Below, piece after piece: positions 480-35,455 of a stretch of DNA of 64,000 nucleotides. The stretch comes from an archaeon (GTDB taxonomy: Archaea > Undinarchaeota > Undinarchaeia > Undinarchaeales > JBDRKL01): the NCBI GenBank assembly GCA_043814055.1, contig JBDRKL010000012.1:8596-72595 (forward strand), written 5' to 3'. A program made the translations under genes and the position numbers. Positions within the stretch are counted from its first letter, which is position 1. Each line of letters begins with the position of its first letter. The notes under the pieces were generated by a model that saw nothing but the letters and a program-made list of their open reading frames with translations, was not told the origin of the DNA and did no database searches.

Positions 480-583
480 GTCCCGCATGACGTTGGTTAT
501 GCTGCACAATGAAACGCCAGAGATTTTTAACAGTTTATATTGCTGGCGATTCATTGTGGCGGGACTGCTGAGTAAGTTGAGTG
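480..583 (-). repeat. R-family two-hairpin element (copy R5) in the 23S trailer, carrying a nested 54-nt hairpin (505-558)
   Basis: Minus strand reads CAACTTACTCAGCAGTCCCGC[CACAATGAATCGCCAG...CTGGCGTTTCATTGTG]CAGCATAACCAACGTCATGCGGGAC. It has the same GTCCCGC/GCGGGAC stem and AGCAUAAC-type loop as the copies at 26271-26301 and 26499-26529. Confidence 0.5.
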
Positions 584-660
584 CCATTGGTTAAAGCTCA
601 CGCTCAACTTTGGATCAATTCTAAAAAAATTTTAGAGTGGTCCCGCATAGAGTATGTATT

Positions 661-3610
<2,950 letters not shown>

Positions 3611-3828
3611 AAGTCTACGTCTATGCGGGACCAATGTTACATATTCCCGTGCAGACTAAAGCACGGAATGTAAGGCCGGTCATCGGGCATTGGGCTGTCG
3701 GGAGCCGTACCCTCGAGAACCTCTTCACTCCCACCCCAATAGATCTGGGAGTTGTGTCATCAATGAATTGATGATTGTGATTTCGAAGCGTGAGCTTCGA
3801 AAGACACCCAATTATTTGGGTGTGATGT

Positions 3829-4513: not shown

Positions 4514-5978
<1,465 letters not shown>

Positions 5979-6268
5979 AATGGGAGAGTTCTTTCTCACC
6001 AGGCCAATTTTTCAGATTCATTCCCCTTAAGGAGAAAGTCCTCACATTTTTTCCCGCGGCCTTGATACAACACGCATACGCCAAGGCATATGCATGTGTG
6101 TCATTCGCCGAAGGCGAACGACAGGTACCCCTCACAGCTTGAAAGAATGAGTGTCGCCACTCCCCGATTTCAGTAGCTAAGGGCCTTCGAAATACGAGAG
6201 GGCCGCGAGTTCTCGTGTAAACGAGAAATTAAAAGCTCTGTTAATATAGAAGGTGGGGTATATAAAGT

Positions 6269-9723: not shown

Positions 9724-9798
9724 TGCCCCAGCCGGGATTCGAACCCGAGTCTCCGCCTTGAAAGGGCGGAATGATTGGCCGGACTACACCACCGGGGC
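9724..9798 (-). tRNA. tRNA-Glu (anticodon UUC)
   Basis: GCCCCGG-TG-GTGTAGTCCGGCCAATCAT-TCCGCC-CTTTCAA-GGCGGA-GAC-TCGGG-TTCGAAT-CCCGG-CTGGGGC-A. No intron and no encoded CCA. Confidence 0.9.
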
Positions 9799-9990
9799 AG
9801 GTTTTTACCAATGTGCACCGAGATACAAAGCTTTTTTCGTCAACGTTTTTGCGAAGCAAAAAGGTTGGACTTCACACCACCGGGGCAACTTTATGTGCGC
9901 CAGGCAATGTACTTTTCTTTTGGTCAAGCTTTTCTTCGTAAAGAAAAGATTGCCGTTGAGTACACCACCGGGGCAACTTTAAGCTATAGG
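9799..9990 (-). repeat. two tandem 88-bp units, each starting with a copy of the tRNA-Glu 5' end (GCCCCGGTGGTGT)
   Basis: The exact 13-mer occurs at 9786-9798 (real tRNA), 9874-9886 and 9962-9974, a spacing of exactly 88 and 88 nt. Each unit has the tRNA 5' fragment, an A/T hairpin, TTGAC(C/G)AAAA, and a ~41-45 nt spacer. Confidence 0.8.
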
Positions 9991-10022: not shown

Positions 10023-10098
10023 TTAGTTCAACTTGCTTGGTAGTTCCGTAGCATCACAAATGTAATGCGGAACCGCGTGTCAACTTCGCGAGAAGTTG
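10023..10098 (+). repeat. R-family two-hairpin element (copy R3)
   Basis: TAGTTCAACTTGCTTGGTAGTTCCGTAGCATCACAAATGTAATGCGGAACCGCGTGTCAACTTcgcgagAAGTTG. It is homologous to 26251-26327, with compensatory stem changes. Confidence 0.6.
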
Positions 10099-10101
10099 TA
10101 A

Positions 10102-10213
10102 TGGGCCCGTCGTGATTCGAACACGAGACCTCACGCTTTCGCAAGCGTGCCCGCATTTTGTGCGGAACACAGCCATATAAGGCGTGCGCTCCACCAGGCT
10201 GAGCTACGGGCCC
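10102..10213 (-). tRNA. tRNA-Ile (anticodon UAU) with 38-nt intron at 37/38 (intron about 10138-10175)
   Basis: GGGCCCG-TA-GCTC-AGCCTGGTG-GAGC-G-CACGC-CTTATA|intron|A-GCGTG-AGGTC-TCGTG-TTCGAAT-CACGA-CGGGCCC-A. The GGGCCCGTAGCTCAG start is typical of archaeal tRNA-Ile. The anticodon TAT reads from 10179-10177. Confidence 0.8.
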
Positions 10214-10349
10214 AAACTTTTATTTAGCCTATGGTTTTGGTTTCCGATGAACTGACCCGATAAGGCCGCAGCATCACCAAAGTGATGCGGCCTAACGCCC
10301 CTCCGCCGCTGTGCGGAGAGCTCCACGGGCCCAAACTTTTATTTAGCCT
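10206..10349 (-). repeat. 25-nt perfect direct repeat (10206-10230 and 10325-10349) bracketing a 94-nt R-family insertion (copy R4, 10231-10324)
   Basis: ACGGGCCCAAACTTTTATTTAGCCT occurs twice. It comprises the last codons and stop of ileS, 6 nt, and the first 8 nt of tRNA-Ile. The intervening sequence holds the hairpins GGCCGCAGCATCACcaaaGTGATGCGGCC and CTCCGCcgctgtGCGGAG. Confidence 0.85.
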
Positions 10350-13269
10350 TGTCAAACCCAATGCTTATCTCCTTGTCCTCGAATTTGCACTCGCCGGAAA
10401 CTTTTGCTTTTACTGGTAGTTCGGCTATATCAATCTTTTCAGCGCCGACTTTCAGCACGATTTCCTCGCGGAACTTGTTCAGTGCCCTGCGTGCAAATTC
10501 GTCTGAACTGGAGAATGTGACGTTGATTTTCTCATCAACCTTGAATTCGTTCTTCTTTCGCAACACCTGGACTGCGCGCATTACCTCGCGGGCTAGCGCT
10601 TCTTCCAGAATTGCTGGGGTGAGCTCGTTGTCCAGCACGAGCTTGCCGAACTCAAATTCTTTTTCAATTCCTTTTGTGCTTCCTGCCTTGAGCTCTTTCA
10701 CATTTGCCTGTGTTTTTATGACTTGCTCAAATGTTTTCAAGGCCTTCTTGACTTTGTCATCACCTTCAACTGCTAGAGTCTTGAGCGGCCAGCGGAGTTT
10801 TACTTTTGCTTCCTCGCGGGCAAAGAATGATGCTTCCACAATGCTGCGCGCGATTTTCATTTCTTCCTCAAGCTTTGCGTCTATTTTCTTTGAGTCCGGT
10901 TTTGGCCAGCTGAGCATGTGGATTGATTCCGGAGCTTTCTTGTCCAAAGGTTTTACAATTGCCTGGTATAGTTCCTCTGTGAGTATTGGGAGGATTGGCG
11001 CGGCTAAAATAAGGTACTGCTTGAGCACGTCATACAAGACCTTGAAAGCTGTGAGCTTGTCCGAGCCCTTTGCCGAAACCCAGGTTCGGTCGCGTATTAA
11101 TTTAATATACCAGCGCGAGAGATCCTCAACCATAAAGTCGCGCAGGAGCGGCGGAGCGTCAGGGAATTCCATATCCTCAAACGCCTGCGTAACCTGCTGG
11201 TTTAGAGTATTTATTCTTGAGATTATCCACTTGTCCTCGGGCTTGAGCTTTTTCGTGTCAAGCTTGAACTCTTCTGGGTTGAAGCCTTCAACATCCATGT
11301 ATTTCGCGAACTGCGCAACGTTCCAGAGAATGTTCAACGCTTTGTAAGCCTCGTCCATGTCTTTCCAATTCACGCGCAGGTCTTCGCCAGACCGCGAAGC
11401 TCCGAGGCAGTAAAGCCTCCAGGCTTCTGAGCCGATTTTTTCAATTACTTCAGAAGGTTCAATTACATTGCCAAGTGATTTTGACATCTTCGCGCCTTTC
11501 TCGTCCGAGATAAAGCCGTGCATGTAAACGTTCTTGTAAGGAGTTACGCCGTGAGAGACCATTGAGAGGCAGAGCTGAGAGTTGAACCAGCCGCGGATTT
11601 GATCCTTTCCTTCTGTGATGAAATCTGCAGGCCAGAGCTTCTTGAACTCCGTTTCATCTTTTGGGAATCCGAGCGATGCCCAGGTCGCTGCGCCTGAGTC
11701 CAGCCACACGTCAAGAATGTCCGGGATTCTGCGCATTTCCTTGCCGCACTCTTCGCACTTGAATGTTACCTTGTCAACGTGAGGCCTGTGGAGCTCTTTC
11801 ACGTCTGCATTGAGCTCTGCGCGTGAGCCGATTACTTTCACGTGGTTGTTCTCACAGCGCCAAATTGGCAATGGAATGCCCCAGTATCGTTGTCTTGAAA
11901 TGCACCAGTCCTGAATGTTCTCAAGCCAGTCGCGGAACCATCGCTCGCCAGCCCAGTCCGGACTCCACTTGACTTTCTTGTTCTCCGCAATGAGCTTATC
12001 CTTCATTTTTGAAACGCCGAGATACCACTGCTCTGTGGCTCTGTAAATAATCGGAGACTTGCAGCGCCAGCAGTGCGCGTACTCGTGCGAAACAGGGGTT
12101 TTCATCGCGAGAATTCCTTTTTCCTTGAGAACGTCAATGAATTTCGTGTTGTCCTTGCTCGCGTTCCAGCCTTGGTATTTCCCGCCGAGCTCGTTGAAGT
12201 CCCCGTTCTCTTCAACAACTGTAAATGCTGGAATGTCCAATTTCCTGCCAACATCAAAGTCCTCTGCGCCGCAGCCAGGGGCTGTGTGCACGCAACCTGA
12301 GCCTGCGCTGAGAGTTACGAAACCGTAGAACATCTCGTCTGAGACCGGCTGGATTGTGTAGGCGTTCGGGTATTTCTTGTGCATTTCCTCATGGACTGGC
12401 ATGTCCCCTGCGAATGGGTTGACATATTCAATTCCTTTCAGTTCACTGCCTTTCAGGGTTTCAACAACCTCGTACTTCTTCTCCATCATACCCATCAATG
12501 CAATTACGAACGGCTTTGCAAGAATCCAATACTCGTCTCCGACTTTGATTTTTGCATAGTCAAAATCAGGGTGCACCGCGACCATCATATTCATCGGGAG
12601 CGTCCAAGGTGTGGTTGTCCAGATTAAAACATACTCGTTCTTTTTTCCGCGGAGCTGGAACTTGACGTAAACTGAAGAGTCTGTTACTGTTTCGTATTCA
12701 AGCTCGTGCTTCGCGAGCGCAGTTGCGCAGCGCCAGCACCAGGTGACTGAGCGCGGGCCTGTGAAGAGAAGACCTTTGTCATGTGCTTTTTTGAGCGCCC
12801 ACCAGGCGCCTTCAATATAGGAGTCGTCAATTGTGCGGTATGGCTTGTCCCAGTCCATCCACACGCCGAGCCGGGCGAACTGCTCATTCATCTTCGCGAG
12901 ATTGTCAAGCGCGAATTTCCTGCAGTTGTCAATGAACTTGTCCATGCCAACGCCGGTTTCAATTTCTTTCTTGTTCTTGATGCCCATCAGCTCTTCAACT
13001 TTCACTTCAATCGGTAGGCCGTGCATGTCGTAGCCCGGCTGGGACCTGACGCTGTAGCCCTGCATTCGCTTGTAGCGCAGAATTGAATCCTTGAGAACTT
13101 TGTTCCAGGCGGTTCCAAGGTGGATGTTCCCGGTTGTGTATGGCGGGCCATCGTTGAAGTACCATTTCTTGTCCTTCTCGTGGAGCTTCTGGACTTTTTC
13201 AAAAATTTTCCCGTCTTTCCAGTACTTGAGAATCTTTTCCTCGGTTTCCTGCGGCTTGAATTGTTCCAT
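10339..13269 (-). CDS. ileS: isoleucyl-tRNA synthetase
   Basis: 976 aa with class I motifs PPYTTGNIHLGTAWN (HIGH-type) and KGAKMSKSLGN (KMSKS), plus a CP1 editing-domain-sized insertion. Confidence 0.95.
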   Translation of the reverse strand: MEQFKPQETEEKILKYWKDGKIFEKVQKLHEKDKKWYFNDGPPYTTGNIHLGTAWNKVLKDSILRYKRMQGYSVRSQPGYDMHGLPIEVKVEELMGIKNKKEIETGVGMDKFIDNCRKFALDNLAKMNEQFARLGVWMDWDKPYRTIDDSYIEGAWWALKKAHDKGLLFTGPRSVTWCWRCATALAKHELEYETVTDSSVYVKFQLRGKKNEYVLIWTTTPWTLPMNMMVAVHPDFDYAKIKVGDEYWILAKPFVIALMGMMEKKYEVVETLKGSELKGIEYVNPFAGDMPVHEEMHKKYPNAYTIQPVSDEMFYGFVTLSAGSGCVHTAPGCGAEDFDVGRKLDIPAFTVVEENGDFNELGGKYQGWNASKDNTKFIDVLKEKGILAMKTPVSHEYAHCWRCKSPIIYRATEQWYLGVSKMKDKLIAENKKVKWSPDWAGERWFRDWLENIQDWCISRQRYWGIPLPIWRCENNHVKVIGSRAELNADVKELHRPHVDKVTFKCEECGKEMRRIPDILDVWLDSGAATWASLGFPKDETEFKKLWPADFITEGKDQIRGWFNSQLCLSMVSHGVTPYKNVYMHGFISDEKGAKMSKSLGNVIEPSEVIEKIGSEAWRLYCLGASRSGEDLRVNWKDMDEAYKALNILWNVAQFAKYMDVEGFNPEEFKLDTKKLKPEDKWIISRINTLNQQVTQAFEDMEFPDAPPLLRDFMVEDLSRWYIKLIRDRTWVSAKGSDKLTAFKVLYDVLKQYLILAAPILPILTEELYQAIVKPLDKKAPESIHMLSWPKPDSKKIDAKLEEEMKIARSIVEASFFAREEAKVKLRWPLKTLAVEGDDKVKKALKTFEQVIKTQANVKELKAGSTKGIEKEFEFGKLVLDNELTPAILEEALAREVMRAVQVLRKKNEFKVDEKINVTFSSSDEFARRALNKFREEIVLKVGAEKIDIAELPVKAKVSGECKFEDKEISIGFDKAK

Positions 13270-26250: not shown

Positions 26251-26327
26251 GTAGTTTGACTTGCTTGGCAGTCCCGCAGCATCACAAACTTAACGCGGGA
26301 CAATTTGTCAACTGAATTTGCAGTTGT
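26251..26327 (+). repeat. R-family two-hairpin element (copy R1), abutting the tRNA-Asn 5' end
   Basis: GTAGTTTGACTTGCTTGGCA-GTCCCGC-agcatcacaaacttaac-GCGGGAC-aatttgt-CAACTGaatttgCAGTTG-t. Hairpin 1 is 26271-26301 and hairpin 2 is 26309-26326. Confidence 0.65.
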
Positions 26328-26452
26328 GCCTCTGTAGCTCAGCGGTAGAGCGTCTGGCTGTTATCACAAAGCGCGCTTTGTGAATCATCACGAAGCGCAG
26401 CGAAGTGATGGGTACCAGAAGGTCGCAGGTTCAAATCCTGCCGGAGGCGCCA
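26328..26452 (+). tRNA. tRNA-Asn (anticodon GUU) with 50-nt intron at 37/38 (26364-26413); CCA encoded
   Basis: GCCTCTG-TA-GCTC-AGCGGTA-GAGC-G-TCTGG-CTGTTA|intron|A-CCAGA-AGGTC-GCAGG-TTCAAAT-CCTGC-CGGAGGC-G-CCA. The intron forms two hairpins (TCACAAAGCgcGCTTTGTGA and CATCAC..GTGATG). Confidence 0.88.
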
Positions 26453-26477
26453 ATCTTATTTTCATTTATTTAACCAA

Positions 26478-26556
26478 AGGCAAACAAATAGCTTGGCAGT
26501 CCCGCAGCATAACAAACTTAACGCGGGACAATTTGCCGGCGTAATTTGACGCCGAT
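26478..26556 (+). repeat. R-family two-hairpin element (copy R2), 3' of tRNA-Asn
   Basis: GGCAAACAAATAGCTTGGCA-GTCCCGC-agcataacaaacttaac-GCGGGAC-aatttg-CCGGCGtaatttgaCGCCG. Hairpin 1 is nearly identical to R1, and hairpin 2 has a completely different but still complementary stem. Confidence 0.65.
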
Positions 26557-29055: not shown

Positions 29056-29197
29056 AAAAAATGGCCCGGGTAGTTCATTGGCAACCTTTTTCTTTTCACA
29101 AAAGAAAAAGCTCGAACGCGCACAGCGCGTTGAGCAACTCGCTGTCGCGAGTTTGTTTGACCAAAAAGAAAACTTCGGACCGATTTGCGAAAAAAAT
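29056..29197 (+). repeat. 135-bp unit beginning with a 20-nt copy of the tRNA-His start region (pseudo 5' fragment), then a hairpin module (copy M4)
   Basis: AAAAAATGGCCCGGGTAGTT occurs at 29056-29075 and again at 29191-29210, where it is the real tRNA start. After the first copy comes CATTGGCAACC + CTTTTTCTTTTcacAAAAGAAAAAG + two GC hairpins (29110-29135, 29136-29153) + TTGACCAAAAAGAAAA (29157-). Confidence 0.8.
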
Positions 29198-29273
29198 GGC
29201 CCGGGTAGTTTAGTGGTTAGAATTGGAGACTGTGGATCTTCAGACGCGAGTTCAATTCCCGCCCTGGGCCCCA
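29198..29273 (+). tRNA. tRNA-His (anticodon GUG) with genome-encoded G-1, C73 and CCA
   Basis: G(-1)-GCCCGGG-TA-GTTTAGTGGTTAGAAT-T-GGAGA-CTGTGGA-TCTTC-AGAC-GCGAG-TTCAATT-CCCGC-CCTGGGC-C-CCA. One A.C mismatch in the T stem. Confidence 0.85.
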
Positions 29274-29276
29274 TTC

Positions 29277-29360
29277 AACCTTTTTTCCCTTGCGATTGGG
29301 GGAAAAAGCTTGACCAAAAATCAGGGGCGTTCGCTCGCTACGCTTGCGAAGCCCCACTTC
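29277..29360 (+). repeat. hairpin + CTTGACCAAAAA module (copy M5) plus a 32-nt GC hairpin in the hisS leader
   Basis: AACCTTTTTTCCCttgcgattGGGGGAAAAAG-CTTGACCAAAAA (29309-29320), then GGGGCGTTCGC..GCGAAGCCCC (29324-29355). Confidence 0.6.
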
Positions 29361-29378
29361 TTTTTACAGGTGATTTAG

Positions 29379-30668
29379 ATGGATAAATTTGAAGCCACCC
29401 GCGGAATGAGGGATTTCCTTCCAGAGGAGATGGAGAAGAGAAGGTATGTTATTGATATTATTAGGACGACCTTCAAGACCTATGGCTTTGGCGAGATTTG
29501 GACTCCTGCGCTTGAGAGCCTTGGGCTGCTAAGCGCAAAGAGTGGAGGCGGGGACGAGATTGCAAAGACAATATTCACGCTCAAGGACCAAGGAGGAAGG
29601 ATGCTCGGGCTCAAGTTTGACCAGACTGTTCCAACCTCAAGGGTTATCGCGAACAACCCGCAGCTTACAAAGCCATTCAAGCGATTCATAATCAGCCCGG
29701 TTTGGAGGTATGAGAGACCGCAAGCAGGGCGATATAGGGAATTCTGGCAGGCGGATGTGGATATTTTCGGCTCGAAAAACCCAGAGGCAGATGTTGAGAC
29801 TGTTGCGTGCACAGCCGCTGTTCTTACTGCGCTTGAGTTTGAGGAGTATGAGATAATCATAAACAACAGAAAACTGCTCAAGGGGCTTGCGATGCAGTTC
29901 GGATTCAAGGAGAACCAGGTTGTGGACCTGCAGAGGTGCATTGACAAGCTGGACAAGAACAGCGAGGGTGAAGTTGTGCGCGAAGCAGCTGAGAAAGGGC
30001 TTGACGAGGACTTGGTAAGGGACTTTATAGCCACGATAAGCATGGAAGGGAAGCCGGAGGATGTTTTGAAAAAGATAAAGCCAAGTTTGAAAGATACACT
30101 TGCGCTGGAAGGGCTTGGCGAACTAGAGGAGTTTATTTCACTTTCAAAGCCGTATGGCATTTATGAGAAGCTCAAGCTGAACTTGAGCATGGTAAGAGGC
30201 TTGGATTATTACACCGGCACGATTTTTGAGTTCAAGGCAACTGACGCCAAGATTGGCTCGTTTATGGGCGGCGGAAGGTTTGACAAGCTTGTTTCAGCTG
30301 CAGGCGGAGAAGCGATTGCAGCCACCGGGCTTTCAATAGGCGTGGACAGGCTTGTTGAAATTTTGAGAACTAAAGAGAAACTCAAGGCAAGCGGCGGGTG
30401 CAGGGTTCTTGTAGGCTATTTCCCTAACTGCAGGGAGAAAGCAATTGAGATTGCGCAGGGATTGAGGAAGGCTGGGGTTGAAACTGATTTTGACACAAAG
30501 CGCAGGAGCGTTTCAAAAGTTCTGGACTATGCGAACGCGAAGAAGATTCCTTACGTGGTTCTTGTTGGAGAGAAAGAGCTGAAGGAGAACAAGGTTGCGC
30601 TTAAGAATATGGAAACAGGAGAGCAGAAGTTGGTTAAGGAGAGCGAGCTGTTAAAAAGTTTAAAGTAG
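29379..30668 (+). CDS. hisS: histidyl-tRNA synthetase (complete, with anticodon-binding domain)
   Basis: 429 aa with class II motif 2 VWRYERPQAGRYREFWQ, the HisRS motifs RGLDYYTG and GGGRFDKL, motif 3 ATGLSIGVDR, and a C-terminal alpha/beta anticodon-binding domain. AGGTGAT SD. Confidence 0.9.
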   Translation: MDKFEATRGMRDFLPEEMEKRRYVIDIIRTTFKTYGFGEIWTPALESLGLLSAKSGGGDEIAKTIFTLKDQGGRMLGLKFDQTVPTSRVIANNPQLTKPFKRFIISPVWRYERPQAGRYREFWQADVDIFGSKNPEADVETVACTAAVLTALEFEEYEIIINNRKLLKGLAMQFGFKENQVVDLQRCIDKLDKNSEGEVVREAAEKGLDEDLVRDFIATISMEGKPEDVLKKIKPSLKDTLALEGLGELEEFISLSKPYGIYEKLKLNLSMVRGLDYYTGTIFEFKATDAKIGSFMGGGRFDKLVSAAGGEAIAATGLSIGVDRLVEILRTKEKLKASGGCRVLVGYFPNCREKAIEIAQGLRKAGVETDFDTKRRSVSKVLDYANAKKIPYVVLVGEKELKENKVALKNMETGEQKLVKESELLKSLK

Positions 30669-30698
30669 TGGGAAAAACATAGGTAATGATTATGGCAA

Positions 30699-30887
30699 GT
30701 GAGTATCTTCACATGGATATGCAAACTGGACACGAAGTCCCGTCTAGTTATACCTTTTAAGGCGCGGAAAGAGCTTGAGATTTCTGATTCTGTTCTTTTG
30801 AAACTTACAGAAGACGGACTAGTTGTTACAAAATCTAATGGAGAAGAGGGAAGGCCAATTTCTAAGATGTGTAGGAGAGTAGAATGA
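30699..30887 (+). CDS. AbrB/SpoVT-type small DNA-binding protein (GTG start)
   Basis: 62 aa with SRLVIPFKARKELEISDSVLLKLTEDGLVV, matching the swapped-hairpin AbrB-type pattern. It lies between hisS and hisG. Confidence 0.45.
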   Translation: MSIFTWICKLDTKSRLVIPFKARKELEISDSVLLKLTEDGLVVTKSNGEEGRPISKMCRRVE

Positions 30888-30935
30888 AAAATTCAGCAGA
30901 GTGTCTTCATTTTAGGAATACCAAATAAGGGGCGT

Positions 30936-31508
30936 TTGAAAGAGCCAGCAGTAGAACTTTTAAAAAAGGCAGGTTTGATTCTTGGCGAGAATGGGAGGTG
31001 CCTGAGCAACAAGGTAGAGGGGGAGAATATTGTTGTGCAGTCTTTCAGGGCAAAGGACATTCCGCTCTATATTGCAGAGGGCGCTGTGGATGTGGGAATT
31101 ACAGGATATGACATTTGGAAAGAGTCCAGATTAGAGCTGAAAGAATTGCTTGACCTGAAATTCGGTTACTGCGACTTGATTTTGGCAGGGGTGGCTGGGA
31201 AAAAAATAAAGAGAGGGGTGAGGGTTGGAACTTCATTTCCCATGCTTACTGCAAATTACTTCGCAAGGCAGGGAATCGCAGCGAGGATTATTGAAGTTTC
31301 AGGCGCAGTTGAGATTCTTCCAAAGTTAGGAATTGCCGATTTTGTAGTTGACTTGACCAGCACGGGCGCCACCTTGAGGGAGAACGGGCTGGTTGTGCTT
31401 GACAAAATTTTGAGCTCTTCAGCAAGATTGCTGTGCAGGCGGATGAAAGAAAAAAACGTAAAATTTGCTGAGCGACTCAGGGAGGTTATTGAAAATGAAA
31501 ATTTATGA
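30936..31508 (+). CDS. hisG: ATP phosphoribosyltransferase, short form (true start probably upstream at a non-canonical codon, 30891-30918)
   Basis: 190 aa from the TTG. The conserved HisG N-terminus ILGIPNKGRL is encoded in-frame just upstream of that TTG. PRPP-binding DLTSTGATLRENGL is present. There is no C-terminal regulatory domain, so this is the short form. Confidence 0.85.
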   Translation: MKEPAVELLKKAGLILGENGRCLSNKVEGENIVVQSFRAKDIPLYIAEGAVDVGITGYDIWKESRLELKELLDLKFGYCDLILAGVAGKKIKRGVRVGTSFPMLTANYFARQGIAARIIEVSGAVEILPKLGIADFVVDLTSTGATLRENGLVVLDKILSSSARLLCRRMKEKNVKFAERLREVIENENL

Positions 31509-32772
31509 GATGGGGGAAGTCCCGAAAACAATAATGATGCGAGCTAAGACTGACGTTGACTCTGTTAAAGAAAGTGTAGGAGAAACAATAAAAAATATCA
31601 GAAAAAATGGGGATACAGCGCTTCGCAAGTATACTGAGAAGTTTGACAGGGTTTTGATAGAGGATTTCAAAACCAGTGAGGACGAGATTAGGGAAGCATA
31701 TGAGGAGATAGATCCGCTTGTTCTTGAAAAAATCAAAGAGCAAATTGAGTATTCAAAAAAGTTCGCGAGCGCAGACAAGAAGAATTTAAAAGAGGAGTGG
31801 AGCGTTCAGCTTGGGGAAGGAATTGAAGGTGGTTTGAAACTTACTCCGATTGAAAGTGTTGGGCTCTACGTGCCAGGCGGGAAAAACCCGTTCCCGACTG
31901 TGATGCAGATTCTTGCGATTCCTGCAAAGATTGCTGGGGTGGAGAAGATTGTTGCGTGCACTCCACCACAGAAAGACGGAAAAATACTAGCAGAGGTTTT
32001 GGTTGCTGCAGATTTGTGCGGCGTGGATGAGGTTTACAAGATGGGCGGGGCGCAGGCAGTTGCTGCTTTTGCTTACGGGACTGAGAGCGTGCCAAAGGTT
32101 TTGAAAGTTGTGGGGCCGGGGAATCCATATGTTACTGCTGCAAAGCTGCTGTGCTTTGGGGAAATTGGGATTGACATGCCAGCAGGACCGAGCGAAGCAT
32201 TGATTATTGCAGATGAAGGCGCAACTCCAAGTTGGCTTGCAGCAGATATCCTTGCAAGGGCAGAGCACGGACCGGATTCTGCCGCTGTGCTTGTAACCTG
32301 GAAAAGGGAAATTGCTGAGAAAACCTTGGAGGAAGTTGGAAGGCAGAAGAAAGAGCGTTCAAGGCAGGAGTATATTGAAACTGCGCTAGAAAAATACTGC
32401 GCGGTTGTTCTTGTCAAGGATTTAAGAGAAGCTGTTGATTTTGCAAACGAATATGCTCCGGAGCACTTGGAGCTACAGGTGGAGAGCCCAAGAGAGATTC
32501 TGCCCTTGATAAATAATGCAGGGTCAGTGTTTCTCGGTTATTACAATCCAGTGGCTGTTGGCGACTACGCAAGCGGCGTGAACCACATATTGCCAACCGG
32601 TCAGTGGGCCAAGATGTTCTCGCCTGTAAGCGTTGAGACATTTATGAAGCGCGTGCAGTTTTCGTATGTGAACAAAACCGGGCTTGAGAAGCTGAAAGGA
32701 ATTGTTGACACGATTGCTGATATTGAAGGTTTGGACGCGCACAGGGAGAGCGTAGATATTAGGCTCCGCTGA
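31495..32772 (+). CDS. hisD: histidinol dehydrogenase
   Basis: Track ORF trimmed to the ATG at 31495 (GGGAGG 10-15 nt upstream). 425 aa with ARAEHGPDSAAVLVT and SVFLGYY..VAVGDYASGVNHILPT. Confidence 0.9.
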   Translation: MKIYEMGEVPKTIMMRAKTDVDSVKESVGETIKNIRKNGDTALRKYTEKFDRVLIEDFKTSEDEIREAYEEIDPLVLEKIKEQIEYSKKFASADKKNLKEEWSVQLGEGIEGGLKLTPIESVGLYVPGGKNPFPTVMQILAIPAKIAGVEKIVACTPPQKDGKILAEVLVAADLCGVDEVYKMGGAQAVAAFAYGTESVPKVLKVVGPGNPYVTAAKLLCFGEIGIDMPAGPSEALIIADEGATPSWLAADILARAEHGPDSAAVLVTWKREIAEKTLEEVGRQKKERSRQEYIETALEKYCAVVLVKDLREAVDFANEYAPEHLELQVESPREILPLINNAGSVFLGYYNPVAVGDYASGVNHILPTGQWAKMFSPVSVETFMKRVQFSYVNKTGLEKLKGIVDTIADIEGLDAHRESVDIRLR

Positions 32773-32801
32773 GAACAGCGGGGTTCGATTGGAGGTGAAA
32801 A

Positions 32802-33407
32802 ATGAAAATTGAGGAAAAAAGGAAGACCAGCGAGTCTGAAATAAAAGTGGTTTTGGAAGATGGTCAGAGAAGAGATATGAAAATTGATACTGGCTTGAAC
32901 TTTTTGAACCACCAAGTGAAGCAGATAGCGTGGCGGCTGTGCATGAACATAGACGCGAGCATAAAGAACACAACTGAGTACAGGAGCACGCACACGATGT
33001 CAGAGGATTTGGGAATAGTGCTAGGCAGGGCTTTGCTCAAGATGTACGAACAGAAAGCAAAAGAAGGTGTGAATGGGTTCGGCGCAGCGTATGGAGTGAT
33101 TGACGAGGCGCGGGCTTTCGCAGCGGTGAGCATAGAAGGCAGGGCAAACTCGTTTGTGGAGATGTGCCCTGAAATTGAGCGGCTTGAACTTGTTGAGGAT
33201 ATGCTGTGCTGGGACTTGGTCGCATTCCTTGAAGGGCTTGCGCAGGGCATGAAAGCAACTGTGCAGGTGAACATTGAGCGTGGCAGAGACCCCCACCACT
33301 CCTGGGAAGCTACGTACAGGGCACTCGGAGAGGCGCTCAAAATAGCACTTCAGAAGAATGAATGGAGGAAAGGCACAATTGCAGGAGTAAAAGGAACACT
33401 AGAATGA
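32802..33407 (+). CDS. hisB: imidazoleglycerol-phosphate dehydratase
   Basis: 201 aa with RGRDPHHSWEATYRALGEAL (the second His-His-x-x-Glu motif) and an upstream TGLNFLNHQ. Confidence 0.8.
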   Translation: MKIEEKRKTSESEIKVVLEDGQRRDMKIDTGLNFLNHQVKQIAWRLCMNIDASIKNTTEYRSTHTMSEDLGIVLGRALLKMYEQKAKEGVNGFGAAYGVIDEARAFAAVSIEGRANSFVEMCPEIERLELVEDMLCWDLVAFLEGLAQGMKATVQVNIERGRDPHHSWEATYRALGEALKIALQKNEWRKGTIAGVKGTLE

Positions 33408-34063
33408 AAGCTGTAATTTTTGACATGGACGGGGTGCTGGTCAAGGAGGACCGGTACTGGAAAGTGGCCAGTGAAGTGGCATTTGACCTAGCGGGGAGAA
33501 GGATTCCTTTTGCTTTCGTTCAAGAGTGCAAAAGCAGGGGAATGAATTCAAACTGGGAAATCTGCTACGAGTTCGTCAAAGGGACTGGGATTGATTATGA
33601 AGGAGTCAAAGAACTTTTTCAGAAAAAGTTGGCAGAATTAAATCCAAAAAATGAGCTTGTAATAAGTAGAGAGGCTTTCCTTGATGTTTTCTTTAGCCTG
33701 AAGCCCTTGTACTCAATGTACATAGCGACCAGCAGACCGAGGAAAGAAGCGCTGGAGGCGGTTGAGCAGACTGTTCTTTCAGAATTTTTCAATGAGGATT
33801 CGGTTTATGGAATGGAAGATGCCGCACCTGAGAAAAATCTGAAAGAAGCCCTGTTCTCCATGGTCAGGGAGAAAAACAAATTAGGGGACTGCATCGTGGT
33901 TGGGGATACTGTTTCAGATGTCCTGGCAGGAAAGCGCCTTGGGTTCATGGCAGTTGGAGTTTATGGCAGTTTGGACAATAGGGCAGACCTTGAAAAAGCC
34001 AGGGCGGATATTTTGGCAGAGAACCTATCGGAGCTTTGGATTTTGTTGGATGGAATCAAATGA
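33404..34063 (+). CDS. HAD-superfamily hydrolase, candidate histidinol-phosphate phosphatase
   Basis: ATGA overlap with the hisB stop. MKAVIFDMDGVLV (HAD motif I) and VVGDTVSDVLAG (motif IV). Its position inside the his operon suggests the missing phosphatase step. Confidence 0.6.
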   Translation: MKAVIFDMDGVLVKEDRYWKVASEVAFDLAGRRIPFAFVQECKSRGMNSNWEICYEFVKGTGIDYEGVKELFQKKLAELNPKNELVISREAFLDVFFSLKPLYSMYIATSRPRKEALEAVEQTVLSEFFNEDSVYGMEDAAPEKNLKEALFSMVREKNKLGDCIVVGDTVSDVLAGKRLGFMAVGVYGSLDNRADLEKARADILAENLSELWILLDGIK

Positions 34064-34731
34064 AAATTTATCCTGCAATTGATTTGCTTGGCGGAAGAGC
34101 AGTGCAATTGGTTGGCGGAGATCCAACTAAGCTTTTGTTTAGCAGGGATGCTCTTGAGCAGGCTGAGAAATTCAAAGAAGTGACCTTGTGGCTGATTGAT
34201 TTGAATTCTGCACTAGGCAATGGATCTAACCTCAAACTTATAAAAAAAATACTCACTAAAAGCCCTGCTTGCGTTGGAGGAGGCATTCGAACCATAGAAA
34301 AAGCCAATGAAATGTTAGAAGCAGGGGCTGAAAAAATAATCATTGGAACAAAAGCAGTTGAAGACCCTGAGTTTTTGAAAAACTTCGATCCAGAAAAGGT
34401 GATAGTTGCACTTGACTGCAAGAAGGGGAAAGTATGCATTGATGCGTGGCAATCTGAGACTGGGCGCGAAGTTGAAGACATTGGAGCAAAATATTACCTT
34501 GTAACAAATATTGATGTTGAGGGACGGCAGGAAGGACTTGACTTTTCTTTTGTTGAGAATGTTTTGGACAAATTGCCTAATGTGATAATTTCTGGCGGAA
34601 TTTCTTCCCCAGAAGATGTTTTTAAAATTAAAAAAATGGGCGCGTACGGTGTCGTTATAGGCAGCGCGCTTTATTCTGGAAAAATAAAACTTGAGGAGGT
34701 TTTAAATGAAAAAAATAATGCCATGCCTTGA
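34060..34731 (+). CDS. hisA: ProFAR isomerase
   Basis: ATGA overlap with the HAD gene. MKIYPAIDLLGGRAVQLVGG, then ...VIISGGISS...GVVIGSALY. Confidence 0.88.
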   Translation: MKIYPAIDLLGGRAVQLVGGDPTKLLFSRDALEQAEKFKEVTLWLIDLNSALGNGSNLKLIKKILTKSPACVGGGIRTIEKANEMLEAGAEKIIIGTKAVEDPEFLKNFDPEKVIVALDCKKGKVCIDAWQSETGREVEDIGAKYYLVTNIDVEGRQEGLDFSFVENVLDKLPNVIISGGISSPEDVFKIKKMGAYGVVIGSALYSGKIKLEEVLNEKNNAMP

Positions 34732-35455
34732 CACTTTTGATGGAAAGCTTGTCAAAGGCGTGAAGTTTGAGATAAACAAAGAATTTGGAGACCCAGTAGA
34801 GTATGCAAAGAAGTATTGTGAAGATGGTGCTGACGAGCTTGCTGTGCTGGACATTAACGCGACTCCTGAAGGGAGAGCTACATTGCTCGAGGTTGTGAAG
34901 AACATTTCAGCAGTGTGCACTGTGCCGCTCACAGTTGGGGGCGGAATACGGAGTGTTGAAGAGATTGAAAAAGTGCTTGATGCAGGCGCTGACAAGGTTT
35001 CAATAAACACCGCTGCTGTGAATCGACCTGAGTTGATTAAAGAAGCTGCTGAAAAATTTGGCTCTGAAAAAATTGTTGTAGCAATTGACTTCACCAAGAA
35101 AGATGGAACTTGGAAAGTGCTTGTTAATGCAGGAAAAACAATTGTTGACAAAGACGTGATTGAATGGGCCAAAGAAGCTGAGGAGTTGGGCGCAGGAACT
35201 TTGCTTCCAACTAGTTTGGATGCTGATGGGACAAAAAAGGGCTTTGATTTAGAGGCAACCCGGCTGATAAAAGAGTCTGTTTCAGTGCCAGTAATCGCAA
35301 GTGGCGGCGCAGGAACTCTTGAGGACATGTACAAAGTGCTGACAGAGGGTAAAGCGGATGTTGCATTGGCAGCAAGTATTTTCCACTACGGAGAATACAC
35401 AGTACGGGATGTCAAGAAGTATCTAAAAGAAAAAGGAGTTGAGGTGAATCTATGA
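34706..35455 (+). CDS. hisF: imidazole glycerol phosphate synthase cyclase subunit
   Basis: 249 aa with [27 protein letters not shown] and VIASGGAG. Confidence 0.92.

Follow-up and report, generated by a model that had tools for sequence, protein, structure and literature searches.

The R repeats and their host genes

The window analysed here, a 64-kb stretch of one Undinarchaeota MAG whose IleRS has its nearest named relatives in the Undinarchaeales and Naiadarchaeum, contains a two-hairpin repeat of about 75 nt, here called R, in five copies, each next to the 23S rRNA gene or to one of two tRNA genes. The tRNA-Asn(GUU) gene (26328..26449, forward strand) has a 51-nt intron at the canonical position and R1 and R2 on its flanks. 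The tRNA-Ile(UAU) gene (10102..10213, reverse strand) has a 39-nt intron, also at the canonical position, with R4 on the leader side and R3 on the trailer side. R5 is in the trailer of the 23S rRNA.

R1 (26253..26326, forward strand) occupies the 5' leader of tRNA-Asn, ending 1 nt from position +1 of the tRNA, and consists of a 5' extension (26253-26270), hairpin 1 (26271-26301; GTCCCGC, a 17-nt loop, and GCGGGAC), a spacer (26302-26308), and hairpin 2 (26309-26326). R2 (26482..26554, forward strand) is in the 3' trailer of the same tRNA, downstream of a T-rich stretch, and likewise has a 5' extension, followed by hairpin 1 (26499-26529), spacer (26530-26536), and hairpin 2 (26537-26554; CGGCGT/ACGCCG). 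R1 and R2 are 98% identical over 45 nt; 42 of 44 positions match outside stem 2, but only 4 of 12 within it. R3 (10024..10098, forward strand) is antisense to tRNA-Ile and lies 3 nt past the tRNA 3' end; it has the 5' extension, hairpin 1 at 10043-10073 (GTTCCGT/GCGGAAC), the spacer, and hairpin 2 at 10081-10098. R4 (10240..10318, forward strand), also antisense to tRNA-Ile, is in its leader, with hairpin 1 at 10263-10293 (AGGCCGC/GCGGCCT), the spacer, and hairpin 2 at 10301-10318; within its hairpin 1 is the inner palindrome GCATCAC-CAAA-GTGATGC. R5 (480..583, reverse strand) is found downstream of a run of seven T (627-621) and has a 5' extension (583-566), a 5' arm (565-559), an insertion (558-504), the loop (503-487), and a 3' arm (486-480). 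The 55-nt insertion that splits it is a nested 54-nt hairpin plus one C, placed between the 5' arm and the loop, the stem/loop junction at which a first-pass annotation of this DNA had located such a hairpin, and hairpin 2 of R5 has decayed. Orientation relative to the host gene is therefore mixed, R1, R2, and R5 being sense and R3 and R4 antisense.

All five copies had been proposed in the first-pass annotation, and all exist, at or near the positions it assigned. The loop pattern AGCATNACNAANNTNANGCGG, with 15 specified bases, has five zero-mismatch matches in the window, at 26278, 26506, 10050, and 10270 on the forward strand and 503-483 on the reverse strand; the sixth-best match, and the sole other one, has three mismatches. 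A covariance model of the copies, as the annotation had also suggested, separates them clearly: with filters off, covariance model R1 scores R1 at 72.9, R2 at 70.1, R3 at 68.0, and R4 at 55.7 bits and the halves of R5 at 20.2 and 17.0 bits, while the best non-R match in the 64 kb reaches 9.3 bits. The copy count applies to these 64 kb. Stable-RNA flanks hold all five copies, yet make up only about 40% of the noncoding DNA of the window; because the five copies represent just three independent loci, the enrichment is roughly p = 0.05. The same model finds no R adjoining tRNA-Ala, tRNA-Glu, or tRNA-His in the window.

The two tRNAs flanked by R are also the two intron-bearing tRNAs of the window, and the tRNA-Ile intron had been described as a shortened R. 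This relationship did not hold. Local alignment of the R copies with the tRNA-Ile gene, including its intron, gave nothing at p <= 0.02, and the intron hairpin is found in four of the five relatives, all of them lacking R; its sequence in L042 and L043 is GTTTCG/GTTTCA, with no clear stem in L043. The tRNA-Asn intron has a homologue in L043, and the genes of L040 and L044 are intronless. Since relatives without R share the introns, the introns are older than R.

Fold, conserved loop, and known RNA classes

The 56-nt cores of R1 to R4 align without gaps as a 7-bp stem capped by a 17-nt loop, 7 nt of spacer, and a 6-bp stem capped by a 6-nt loop. Standard pairs fill 97% of pair cells, and both sides have changed in 7 of 13 pairs, figures that are descriptive rather than a test given only five related copies. 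Stem 1, proposed as GUCCCGC/GCGGGAC with a compensated change in R3, is indeed 100% paired in these four copies, with three double-sided changes in R4 and, in R3, one further double-sided change and one U.G pair. For stem 2, in R1 to R4, the paired fraction is 93%, and four of its six pairs show double-sided changes. The claim that hairpin 2 differs between copies yet always pairs needs correction for R5, whose second hairpin is not intact. Shifting the 3' partners by one to three columns lowers pairing to 36-46%.

Conservation of the loop, also claimed earlier, is clear: 11 of 17 columns of loop 1 are invariant, compared with none of 13 in the spacer and loop 2 (Fisher p = 3e-4), and the contrast extends to R4 and R5, whose flanks are unrelated. 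Within the loop, the 5' half (AGCATMAC..MAA) is conserved above all its surroundings. The loop includes AGCAUCAC; read in the R orientation it is A/C-rich and predicted to be unpaired, and the predicted folds of R1 and R2 leave it open. The compensated stems, together with a loop conserved beyond its surroundings, suggest that something reads both fold and loop. A loop so much more conserved than the spacer is the signature of a constrained recognition site and makes a function plausible, and the conserved 5' half is most likely a protein-recognition site. The G.U pairs give conflicting clues to the strand, with the U.G pair in the R3 stem favoring the strand of the first-pass annotation and the wobbles of the inner helix favoring the opposite strand.

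If the reader of the loop acted on DNA, R would be an imperfect palindrome recognized by a protein dimer, serving as the core site of a recombinase or as the target of a transcription factor that controls stable-RNA loci, and the hairpins would be a by-product of symmetry. The palindrome of R4, GCATCAC-N4-GTGATGC within CCGC...GCGG, is perfect, the orientation independence of the copies would be natural, the tRNA loci of the clade show inversions and partial duplications, and the predicted folding energy is about equal on both strands. However, conservation is asymmetric, with the left half invariant and the right half decayed in R1 and R2 (4 of 7 positions), compensatory changes in the outer stem would alter the half-sites of such a protein, and the sequence of hairpin 2 varies completely. 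The ORFs scanned, which lie between 3.8 and 35.5 kb of the window, include no transposase, integrase, recombinase, or RAYT. We regard a DNA site as very unlikely.

The copies could instead be stand-alone small-RNA genes with their own promoters, encoding trans-acting regulators or guides. In the R orientation, A/T-rich TATA-like boxes are present about 25-40 nt upstream of hairpin 1 in R2 (TTTATTTAACC), R5 (TTTAACCAATGG), R3 (ATTTAAAGG), and R4 (TTTATTTAGCC), and such genes would explain an orientation independent of the neighbors. However, the A/T-richness of intergenic DNA would by itself be expected to produce TATA-like words; R1, inside the tRNA-Asn leader, lacks such a box, and no oligo-T terminator follows the unit. 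Pairing of the loop or its complement with the local 16S, 23S, and five tRNAs (RNAduplex) was no better than for shuffled loops in either orientation, so that no target of the loop complement appeared among these RNAs and a guide RNA is rejected. R also has neither C/D nor H/ACA boxes, while a C/D candidate elsewhere in the window does have boxes. Small-RNA genes are a very improbable account of R.

Several specific classes can be rejected on structural grounds. As a BHB or BHL substrate, R would have an inner helix that is only 68% paired, one pair being standard in just one of five copies, and the motif is formed by R4 alone. No copy has a strict C box (RUGAUGA) on either strand or a consistently placed CUGA, as a box C/D sRNA would. 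An H/ACA sRNA would have an internal pseudouridylation pocket and a single-stranded ACA 3' of its stem, but the R stem is an uninterrupted 7 bp; an ACA is found only after R1 and R2, where it overlaps the stem, and R3, R4, and R5 have none there. We conclude that R is neither a guide acting in trans nor a BHB element, and that it belongs to neither the C/D nor the H/ACA class. A genuine C/D-like candidate with all four boxes is located at about 40622-40567 on the reverse strand of the window.

R is not a tRNA pseudogene or fragment, since the tRNA model at E <= 10 finds only the real genes, and local alignments of R with all five tRNAs are not significant. No match to Rfam was obtained at gathering thresholds, and E <= 10 gives only unrelated chance matches over the three R loci; with no Rfam signal at E <= 10, R as the missing 5S rRNA or RNase P RNA of the 23S trailer was also rejected. 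An intrinsic terminator is excluded by the lack of a run of at least four T after either hairpin on either strand. A small ORF on the reverse strand (ATG CTG CGG...) was discarded because the frames vary in length from 8 to 30 codons, the frame is not kept in R5, and no Shine-Dalgarno sequence has the proper spacing. A leader-trailer helix around tRNA-Asn occurs in the minimum-free-energy fold, but it was set aside and is not relied on because it depends on bulged pairings of repeated words.

The 23S processing stem, relatives, and spacer scars

In the 23S processing stem, GGTCCCGCATAG (3632-3621) pairs with CTATGCGGGACC (650-639), both on the reverse strand. The 5' strand (3621..3632) has GTCCCGCA in common with the hairpin 1 stem of R, and the 3' strand (639..650) has ATGCGGGAC in common with R5; the reported identity of the hairpin 1 7-mer to the core of this stem is correct. 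The 3' half of R5, when reverse-complemented, also agrees with the 23S 5' flank in 14 of 15 nt, with p about 1e-3 per test over about 90 tests, or a family-wise p of about 0.1.

These matches could mean that R is a relic of a larger RNA gene, either a body-deleted 23S processing stem or the anticodon arm of an intron-bearing tRNA. R5 matches both 23S flanks, the tRNA-Asn intron has ATCACAAAG and CATCAC...GTGATG, which resemble the R loop, and body-deleted tRNA copies, common in the clade, provide an analogy upstream of tRNA-His, tRNA-Glu, and tRNA-Ile. Nevertheless, local alignments of R with tRNA-Asn and tRNA-Ile are not significant, the tRNA covariance model is blank on the R units at E <= 10, and the family-wise value for the 23S flank is that given above. 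A relic would account for the origin of R but not for conservation of the loop, and is highly improbable.

The first-pass annotation favored a cis-acting RNA element, in which the loop binds a maturation factor or nuclease and marks spacers for processing, termination, or protection, perhaps as a mimic of the 23S stem. The conserved loop and compensated stems are consistent with this, as are the exclusive location of R beside tRNA or rRNA genes, the certain placement of R1 within the tRNA-Asn leader, the A/C-rich loop predicted to be unpaired in the R orientation, and the sequences GTCCCGCA/TGCGGGAC common to R and the 23S processing stem, along with the 14/15-nt match of R5. However, R3 and R4 are antisense to their host tRNA, R5 is disrupted, tRNA-Ala, tRNA-Glu, and tRNA-His of the same window have no R, and five relatives mature the same tRNAs without it. 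These relatives are five loci (L040-L044) with IleRS 66-75% identical to that of the window. R is absent from the orthologous tRNA-Ile sites of all five (covariance model, filters off) and from the orthologous tRNA-Asn sites in four; three of the loci extend to the 16S/23S 5' flanks, where R is likewise absent, and a conserved processing signal is not supported on this basis. Nor does a noncoding copy of a relative's 23S stem sequence occur elsewhere in its locus. A cis-acting element is therefore unlikely. From the broader claim of a functional RNA, the family, the compensated stems, and the conserved loop stand; a guide, a splicing substrate, a conserved processing signal, and a single RNA sense are not supported.

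Wider collections gave the same picture. One loop-pattern scan each of JGI metagenome contigs and IMG/VR returned only chance matches, at 14 metagenome and 3 viral loci, which lack the stems and score at most 23 bits under the covariance model, and genome contigs with relatives of the PyrE-like protein (at most 57% identity) have no tRNA or R nearby. Absence of R at the same sites in five relatives makes a recently spread spacer cassette likelier than a conserved processing signal or guide.

The first-pass annotation was silent on insertion and duplication scars and on the wider modular hairpin architecture of these spacers. The R4-bearing insert is bracketed by two copies of a perfect 25-nt direct repeat, ACGGGCCCAAACTTTTATTTAGCCT. 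Copy A (10206..10230) contains the first 8 nt of the real tRNA-Ile and 17 nt upstream, and copy B (10325..10349) is a pseudo-5' end of tRNA-Ile that overlaps the IleRS stop codon (10339-10341). In L040, L041, L042, and L044 the tRNA-Ile starts 3-6 nt past the IleRS stop codon and there is no R4; the gap in the window has 119 extra nt relative to these four. The tRNA-Ile of L043 has its own pseudo-5' insert at that site, without R. At tRNA-Asn, 129 nt separate the TATA box from the tRNA in the window, compared with 37-41 nt in L042 and L044, and R1 is within the roughly 90 nt that these two lack between the conserved promoter and the tRNA. A flanking direct repeat was found for R4 only, and none for R1, R2, R3, or R5.

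Comparable scars are found without R. Exact pseudo-5' tRNA fragments followed by trailer-like hairpins are present upstream of tRNA-His and tRNA-Glu (two units) in the window, and the tRNA-Asn of L040 and tRNA-Ile of L043 are preceded by the same arrangement. A generic trailer module of Undinarchaeota stable RNAs, defined in this analysis as a CAAC...GUUG hairpin immediately past the RNA 3' end, then UUGAC(C)AAAA, then a GC hairpin, has seven noncoding copies in the window compared with about 1.8 expected; over 29 nt of this module, the tRNA-His trailer of the window and the tRNA-Ile trailer of L042 are 93% identical. On the tRNA strand, hairpin 2 of R3 is a homologue of the tRNA-Ala trailer hairpin, with 80% identity over 41 nt. 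The layout of this module fits the reverse complements of R3 and R1, but not R2, R4, and R5, given their position or orientation.

Origin of R and comparison with known elements

With about even confidence, we interpret R as a genome-specific family of hairpin spacer cassettes of about 75 nt, added to the leaders and trailers of stable RNAs in one Undinarchaeota lineage by copying at the DNA level. The cassette would have originated from modular hairpin 'punctuation' after stable-RNA genes across the phylum, in the order A/U-rich terminator-like hairpin, TTGAC motif, and GC hairpin. Spread as DNA may have occurred locally by tandem duplication of a tRNA with its trailer and subsequent loss of the upstream tRNA body, which would leave a tRNA with one R on either side, the two pointing the same way (R - tRNA - R); a minimum of one more dispersal or inversion event between loci would also be required. 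R would be transcribed passively within pre-tRNA or pre-rRNA spacers and discarded at end maturation, although passive transcription is near-certain only for R1. The hairpins presumably persist because the copies must fold, whether as a nuclease-resistant or insulating spacer structure or as a substrate of the copying process.

Like REP/BIME sequences and prokaryotic MITEs, R is short, hairpin-forming, multi-copy, found only in noncoding DNA, and restricted to one lineage, and it has compensatory stem variation, decay, and one copy with a nested insertion. It differs from them in lacking terminal inverted repeats, since the unit ends (AGTTYRACTTGC... and ...hairpin 2) are not inverted copies of each other and inverted symmetry is confined to the internal hairpins. 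A regular short target-site duplication was not seen either, R4 alone being bracketed by a direct repeat, of 25 nt. The ORFs scanned between 3.8 and 35.5 kb include no partner transposase or RAYT, the five copies known from 64 kb are all beside stable-RNA genes, and the second hairpin keeps its geometry while its sequence is unrelated between copies. The GC-rich helix flanking stable-RNA genes resembles archaeal rRNA processing stems and BHB motifs, and in the same genome the basal helix of the 23S processing stem has exactly the sequence of the R stem, GUCCCGC(A)/(U)GCGGGAC. However, R does not have the paired 3-nt bulges 4 bp apart of a BHB, a BHL can be drawn only for R4, the hairpins are local and do not join leader to trailer, and the 23S stems of the relatives (UGGUUCCG...) have no R-like copies.

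Archaeal tRNA introns transpose in the Thermoproteales, and R is similar in that short structured sequences are found at several tRNA-associated sites in one lineage; however, R is outside the mature tRNA, has no BHB, and has no significant similarity to the introns. Integrative elements leave partial tRNA-gene duplications (review PMC9897764; model PMC3293823). The 25 nt around R4, a tRNA fragment repeated in direct orientation beyond the insert, resembles such a scar, and other tRNAs of the clade have 14-20-nt repeats of a tRNA fragment. The inserts here are hairpin modules of 65-135 nt rather than kilobase-sized elements with an integrase, the repeat is the tRNA 5' end and upstream sequence, and the insert resembles the trailer of the tRNA itself.

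A stronger version of the cassette reading is quite unlikely, but would have greater consequences. R would be a small non-autonomous hairpin element with a sequence-specific recognition loop (AGCAUMAC..MAA) and a stem copying the basal helix of the 23S processing stem, which inserts at tRNA termini, once with a 25-bp duplication, and recruits to the new spacers the same maturation factor or nuclease, making its insertions tolerated or useful; this would be an undescribed remodelling of stable-RNA loci in DPANN. If it is true that the loop is a protein-recognition site common to the 23S processing stem, this would point to a lineage-specific maturation factor. If R is only a spacer repeat, its meaning is descriptive: very compact Undinarchaeota genomes still gain and shuffle small hairpin cassettes around genes for tRNA and rRNA, and covariation in hairpins, taken by itself, says little about whether an RNA gene is present. 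The wider arrangement, in which an exact copy of a tRNA gene's 5' end, followed by terminator-like hairpin modules, stands upstream of tRNA genes across the clade, may matter more than R, and could bear on the gain of tRNA promoters, leaders, and introns in archaea.

Copies, fold and conservation of R

The first-pass annotation described five copies of R, a two-hairpin repeat of about 75 nt, around tRNA-Asn, tRNA-Ile, and the 23S trailer. They lie in the leader (R1) and trailer (R2) of tRNA-Asn, on the leader (R4) and trailer (R3) sides of tRNA-Ile, and in the 23S trailer (R5). All five were recovered: the loop-derived pattern AGCATNACNAANNTNANGCGG has five zero-mismatch matches in the 64-kb window, at these sites, and its sole further match requires three mismatches. 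A covariance model of the five copies, run over all 64 kb with filters off, scored R1-R4 at 73, 70, 68, and 56 bits and the split R5 at 20 + 17 bits, with no other match above 9.3 bits. Measured from the base of hairpin 1 to the last position of hairpin 2, each of R1-R4 spans exactly 56 nt, and their alignment is gapless (a 7-bp stem around a 17-nt loop, a 7-nt spacer, and a 6-bp stem around a 6-nt loop). In this alignment standard pairs fill 96.9% of pair cells and 7 of 13 pairs have changed on both sides, which for five related copies is descriptive only and no real covariation test; sliding the 3' partners by 1-3 columns reduces pairing to 36-46%. The outer three pairs of R4 stem 1 are all swapped on both sides (G-C to A-U, U-A to G-C, C-G to G-C), and the compensatory change proposed for the R3 stem is present as one compensatory pair, together with one U.G pair. 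The hairpin-1 loop is conserved, as had been claimed, with 11 of 17 columns invariant versus 0 of 13 in the spacer and loop 2 (Fisher p = 3e-4). R1, R3, and R5 also have in common a 19-nt 5' extension (roughly AGTTYRACTTGCTTGGYAG), of which R2 and R4 have part. Hairpin 2, said to pair in every copy, does so in R1-R4 but has decayed in R5. The nested hairpin of R5 lies exactly at the stem/loop junction, as a 55-nt insertion (558-504) comprising a perfect 54-nt hairpin and one C.

R1 and R2, 228 nt apart, have 98% identity across a 45-nt stretch. In hairpin 2, however, the stems are unrelated (4/12) and the loops identical (6/6), while the hairpin-2 stem of R1 matches that of R3 at 10/12. Gradual compensatory drift cannot yield this pattern; the copies are mosaics. 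In R1, R2, and R3 (26302-26326, 26530-26554, 10074-10098) the 7-nt spacer repeats the hairpin-2 loop (AATTTG/AATTTG; CGCGTG/CGCGAG), so that the order is S - X - S - X reverse-complemented, with S common to R1 and R2 and X differing between them.

Genomic setting and comparison with relatives

The isoleucyl-tRNA synthetase (IleRS) is a 976-aa ORF adjoining tRNA-Ile and is 100% identical to NCBI protein MFH1424895.1. It forms a tight group with about 12 proteins at 61-75% identity (next matches at most 49%), whose named members are Candidatus Undinarchaeales and Candidatus Naiadarchaeum limnaeum; the host is therefore an Undinarchaeota (DPANN) archaeon. The rRNA operon is on the minus strand (16S, 5977-4514; tRNA-Ala, 4408-4335, between 16S and 23S; 23S, 3616-655), and intron-bearing tRNA-Ile(UAU) and tRNA-Asn(GUU) lie at 10213-10102 (-) and 26328-26449 (+); tRNA-Glu and tRNA-His are also present. 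Cognate synthetases adjoin tRNA genes (10102-13269, 29199-35455), and HisRS and a histidine-biosynthesis operon are directly downstream of tRNA-His. Between tRNA-Ala and 23S, a 107-aa ORF with a Shine-Dalgarno sequence (4152-3829, -) has no Pfam match; the L040 spacer has an ORF-like stretch likewise downstream of tRNA-Ala. No 5S rRNA lies downstream of 23S (300-654, -). In the trailer there, a seven-T run (627-621) is succeeded by one GC-rich hairpin after another over about 300 nt; R5 is among them, and Rfam gives no match to this stretch at E <= 10. The tRNA-His leader has, at 29140-29156, an exact copy of the 17-nt word at 449-465.

The IleRS neighbourhoods of five related genomes, L040 (70% identity), L041 (75%), L042 (68%), L043 (66%), and L044 (68%), are syntenic with the window: each has IleRS, an intron-bearing tRNA-Ile, and the rRNA operon 4-9 kb further, with pyrF/pyrE and tRNA-Asn nearby. 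The covariance model with filters off did not find R in these neighbourhoods. In wider scans, the pattern GYAGCATMACMAANNTNAYGCGG matched 14 loci in JGI metagenome contigs and 3 in IMG/VR, all lacking the flanking stem and scoring at most 23 bits, compared to 56-73 bits for R1-R4. Across these scans, R is confined to the genome of the window.

In four of the five relatives (L040, L041, L042, L044) tRNA-Ile begins just 3-6 nt past the IleRS stop codon; the window has 119 extra nt. The 25-nt ACGGGCCCAAACTTTTATTTAGCCT, comprising the stop-codon region and the first 8 nt of tRNA-Ile, occurs there in two perfect copies (10206-10230 and 10325-10349) that bracket the R4 unit. The promoter word GAAAAGGTTTAAAT of tRNA-Asn, kept in the window, L042, and L044, is 37-41 nt upstream of the gene in the two relatives versus 129 nt in the window, and the extra ~90 nt contain the R1 unit, whose end stops 1 nt short of tRNA +1. 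Because R1 sits between promoter word and tRNA, its transcription within the tRNA-Asn leader is almost certain, the one well-founded statement on the expression of R. By these junctions, R copies look like insertions or duplications.

The tRNA-Asn gene is at 5623-5695 in L040, 2088-2203 in L042, 3878-4001 in L043, and 5088-5160 in L044. Its 51-nt intron in the window is homologous to that of L043, and absent in L040 and L044, and L042 has another intron; the gene's orientation with respect to pyrE varies as well. Such variation indicates repeated inversions and intron turnover. In the window and L040-L044, the A-rich word CATAAA(A)GT fills positions -10 to -1 at most tRNA genes, with TATA-like boxes about 29-41 nt upstream of tRNA starts; this would fit leaders that are very short or missing altogether at insert-free genes.

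Hairpin modules in the spacers of the clade

A generic trailer module consists of a hairpin (5' arm CAAC and a U-run; 3' arm an A-run and GUUG), then TTGACCAAAA, then a variable GC-rich hairpin. Hairpin-preceded TTGACCAAAA occurs at seven noncoding sites in the window, with about 1.8 expected: 4313(-), 9843(-), 9927(-), 29157(+), 29310(+), 40529(-), and 58976(+). They lie after tRNA-Ala, tRNA-His, a candidate box C/D sRNA, and a protein gene; relatives have the module at L042 13066 and L043 4041 and 12964. Over 29 nt of the module, the tRNA-His trailer of the window and the tRNA-Ile trailer of L042 have 93% identity. This second family, larger than R, lies 3' of stable-RNA and some protein genes, and may be both a bidirectional oligo-T terminator and a promoter element. 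Several tRNA starts have TTGACC 40-45 nt upstream. The box C/D candidate (~40622-40567, -; AUGAAGA ... CUGA ... GUGAUGA ... CUGA), missed by Rfam at gathering thresholds, has the module directly 3'.

Upstream of several tRNAs, the 5' end of the gene is present in a further exact copy, after which come trailer-like, terminator-like hairpin modules and only then the gene itself. In the window these are tRNA-His (29056-29075 and 29191-29210, 20 nt exact), tRNA-Glu (9782-9804, 9870-9892, and 9958-9980; two 88-nt units, 20 nt exact each), and tRNA-Ile (25 nt); L040 has one for tRNA-Asn (14 nt, about 5537-5550) and L043 one for tRNA-Ile (18 nt, about 12925-12942). Which tRNAs have such copies (11-20 nt including a few upstream bases) varies between Undinarchaeota genomes. 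Perfect repeats with diverged DNA in between suggest that selection or gene conversion acts on the 5' fragments. Most simply, the copies would have arisen when a tRNA and its trailer were duplicated in tandem and the upstream tRNA body was then lost, which leaves module - tRNA - module in direct orientation.

R1/R2 and R4/R3 have exactly this direct arrangement, module - tRNA - module. Reverse complements of R3 and R1 have the generic trailer layout (CAACUU...AAGUUG hairpin, ACA, and a GC hairpin that is hairpin 1 of R), and the trailer hairpin of tRNA-Ala is a homologue of R3 hairpin 2 (80% over 41 nt, a span that takes in the tRNA 3' end). Given this fit on the other strand, we read R as probably a recently amplified variant of the trailer-module family.

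Candidate functions and origin of R

The stem of R is identical to the basal helix of the 23S processing stem of the same genome (3632-3621 pairs with 650-639), as first noticed for its 7-mer, and this favors some function. It also bears on the very doubtful proposal that R is a relic of a processing stem or intron. Against the 23S 5' flank, the R5 3' half in reverse complement agrees at 14 of 15 positions, a score reached by 27 of 20,000 shuffles; over about 90 such comparisons the family-wise p is ~0.1. The processing stem of relatives is UGGUUCCG..., and their loci have no noncoding copy of their own 23S stem elsewhere. AUUGGYYC starts both the 16S and 23S processing stems in all four genomes (the window, 3621-3640 and 5990-6010 (-), L040, L042, and L043), and the remainder differs. 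The tRNA-Ile intron had been taken for a shortened R. Its hairpin, GTTCCGCA-CAAAA-TGCGGG, has short words in common with R, and the tRNA-Asn intron contains ATCACAAAG and CATCAC...GTGATG, resembling the R loop; local alignment gave no significant match of any R copy to either tRNA. A similar tRNA-Ile hairpin is in four of five relatives, all without R (GTTCCG in L040, L041, and L044; GTTTCG in L042), and L043 retains GTTTCA with no clear stem. A shared origin is possible but unsupported; if related, the introns are older than R.

A cis-acting processing or protein-binding RNA is unlikely. R1, R2, and R5 point the same way as the stable-RNA gene beside them, while R3 and R4 run antisense to tRNA-Ile and tRNA-Glu. 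The relatives do without R in maturing these tRNAs, tRNA-Ala, tRNA-Glu, and tRNA-His in the window also lack it, and R5 is decaying. Some function is nevertheless favored by the placement of all five copies in stable-RNA flanks, which make up ~40% of noncoding DNA in the window (p ~0.05, three independent loci only). The half-loop AGCATMAC..MAA also persists in R4 and R5 despite changed flanks, spacers, and outer stem pairs. From this survival, something apparently reads the half-loop: the machinery copying the element, a factor in maturation, or a protein that binds DNA. That R is a DNA-level protein site is improbable. Strand signals conflict (the U.G pair of R3 favors the strand first annotated, possible inner-helix wobbles the opposite), and folding energies are equal on both strands.

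The least probable reading is that the copies are stand-alone sRNA genes. Neither hairpin is followed by a U-run, and R has no Rfam match even at E <= 10. Box C/D and H/ACA sRNAs were rejected, R having no C/D boxes, unlike the C/D-like gene at ~40622-40567 (-), and no H/ACA layout. A BHB or bulge-helix-loop was also rejected, with an inner helix 68% paired and formed by R4 only. The complement of the loop had been suggested as a target; pairing of loop and complement with local 16S, 23S, and five tRNAs is no better than that of shuffled loops.

From 64 kb of one genome and five related copies, read as sequence alone, the chances are about even that R is a lineage-specific two-hairpin spacer cassette, with the conserved loop as the residue this would not account for. 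Such a cassette would derive from the generic hairpin punctuation of the clade, spread as DNA by partial tandem duplication and at least one dispersal, and be carried passively within precursor spacers.
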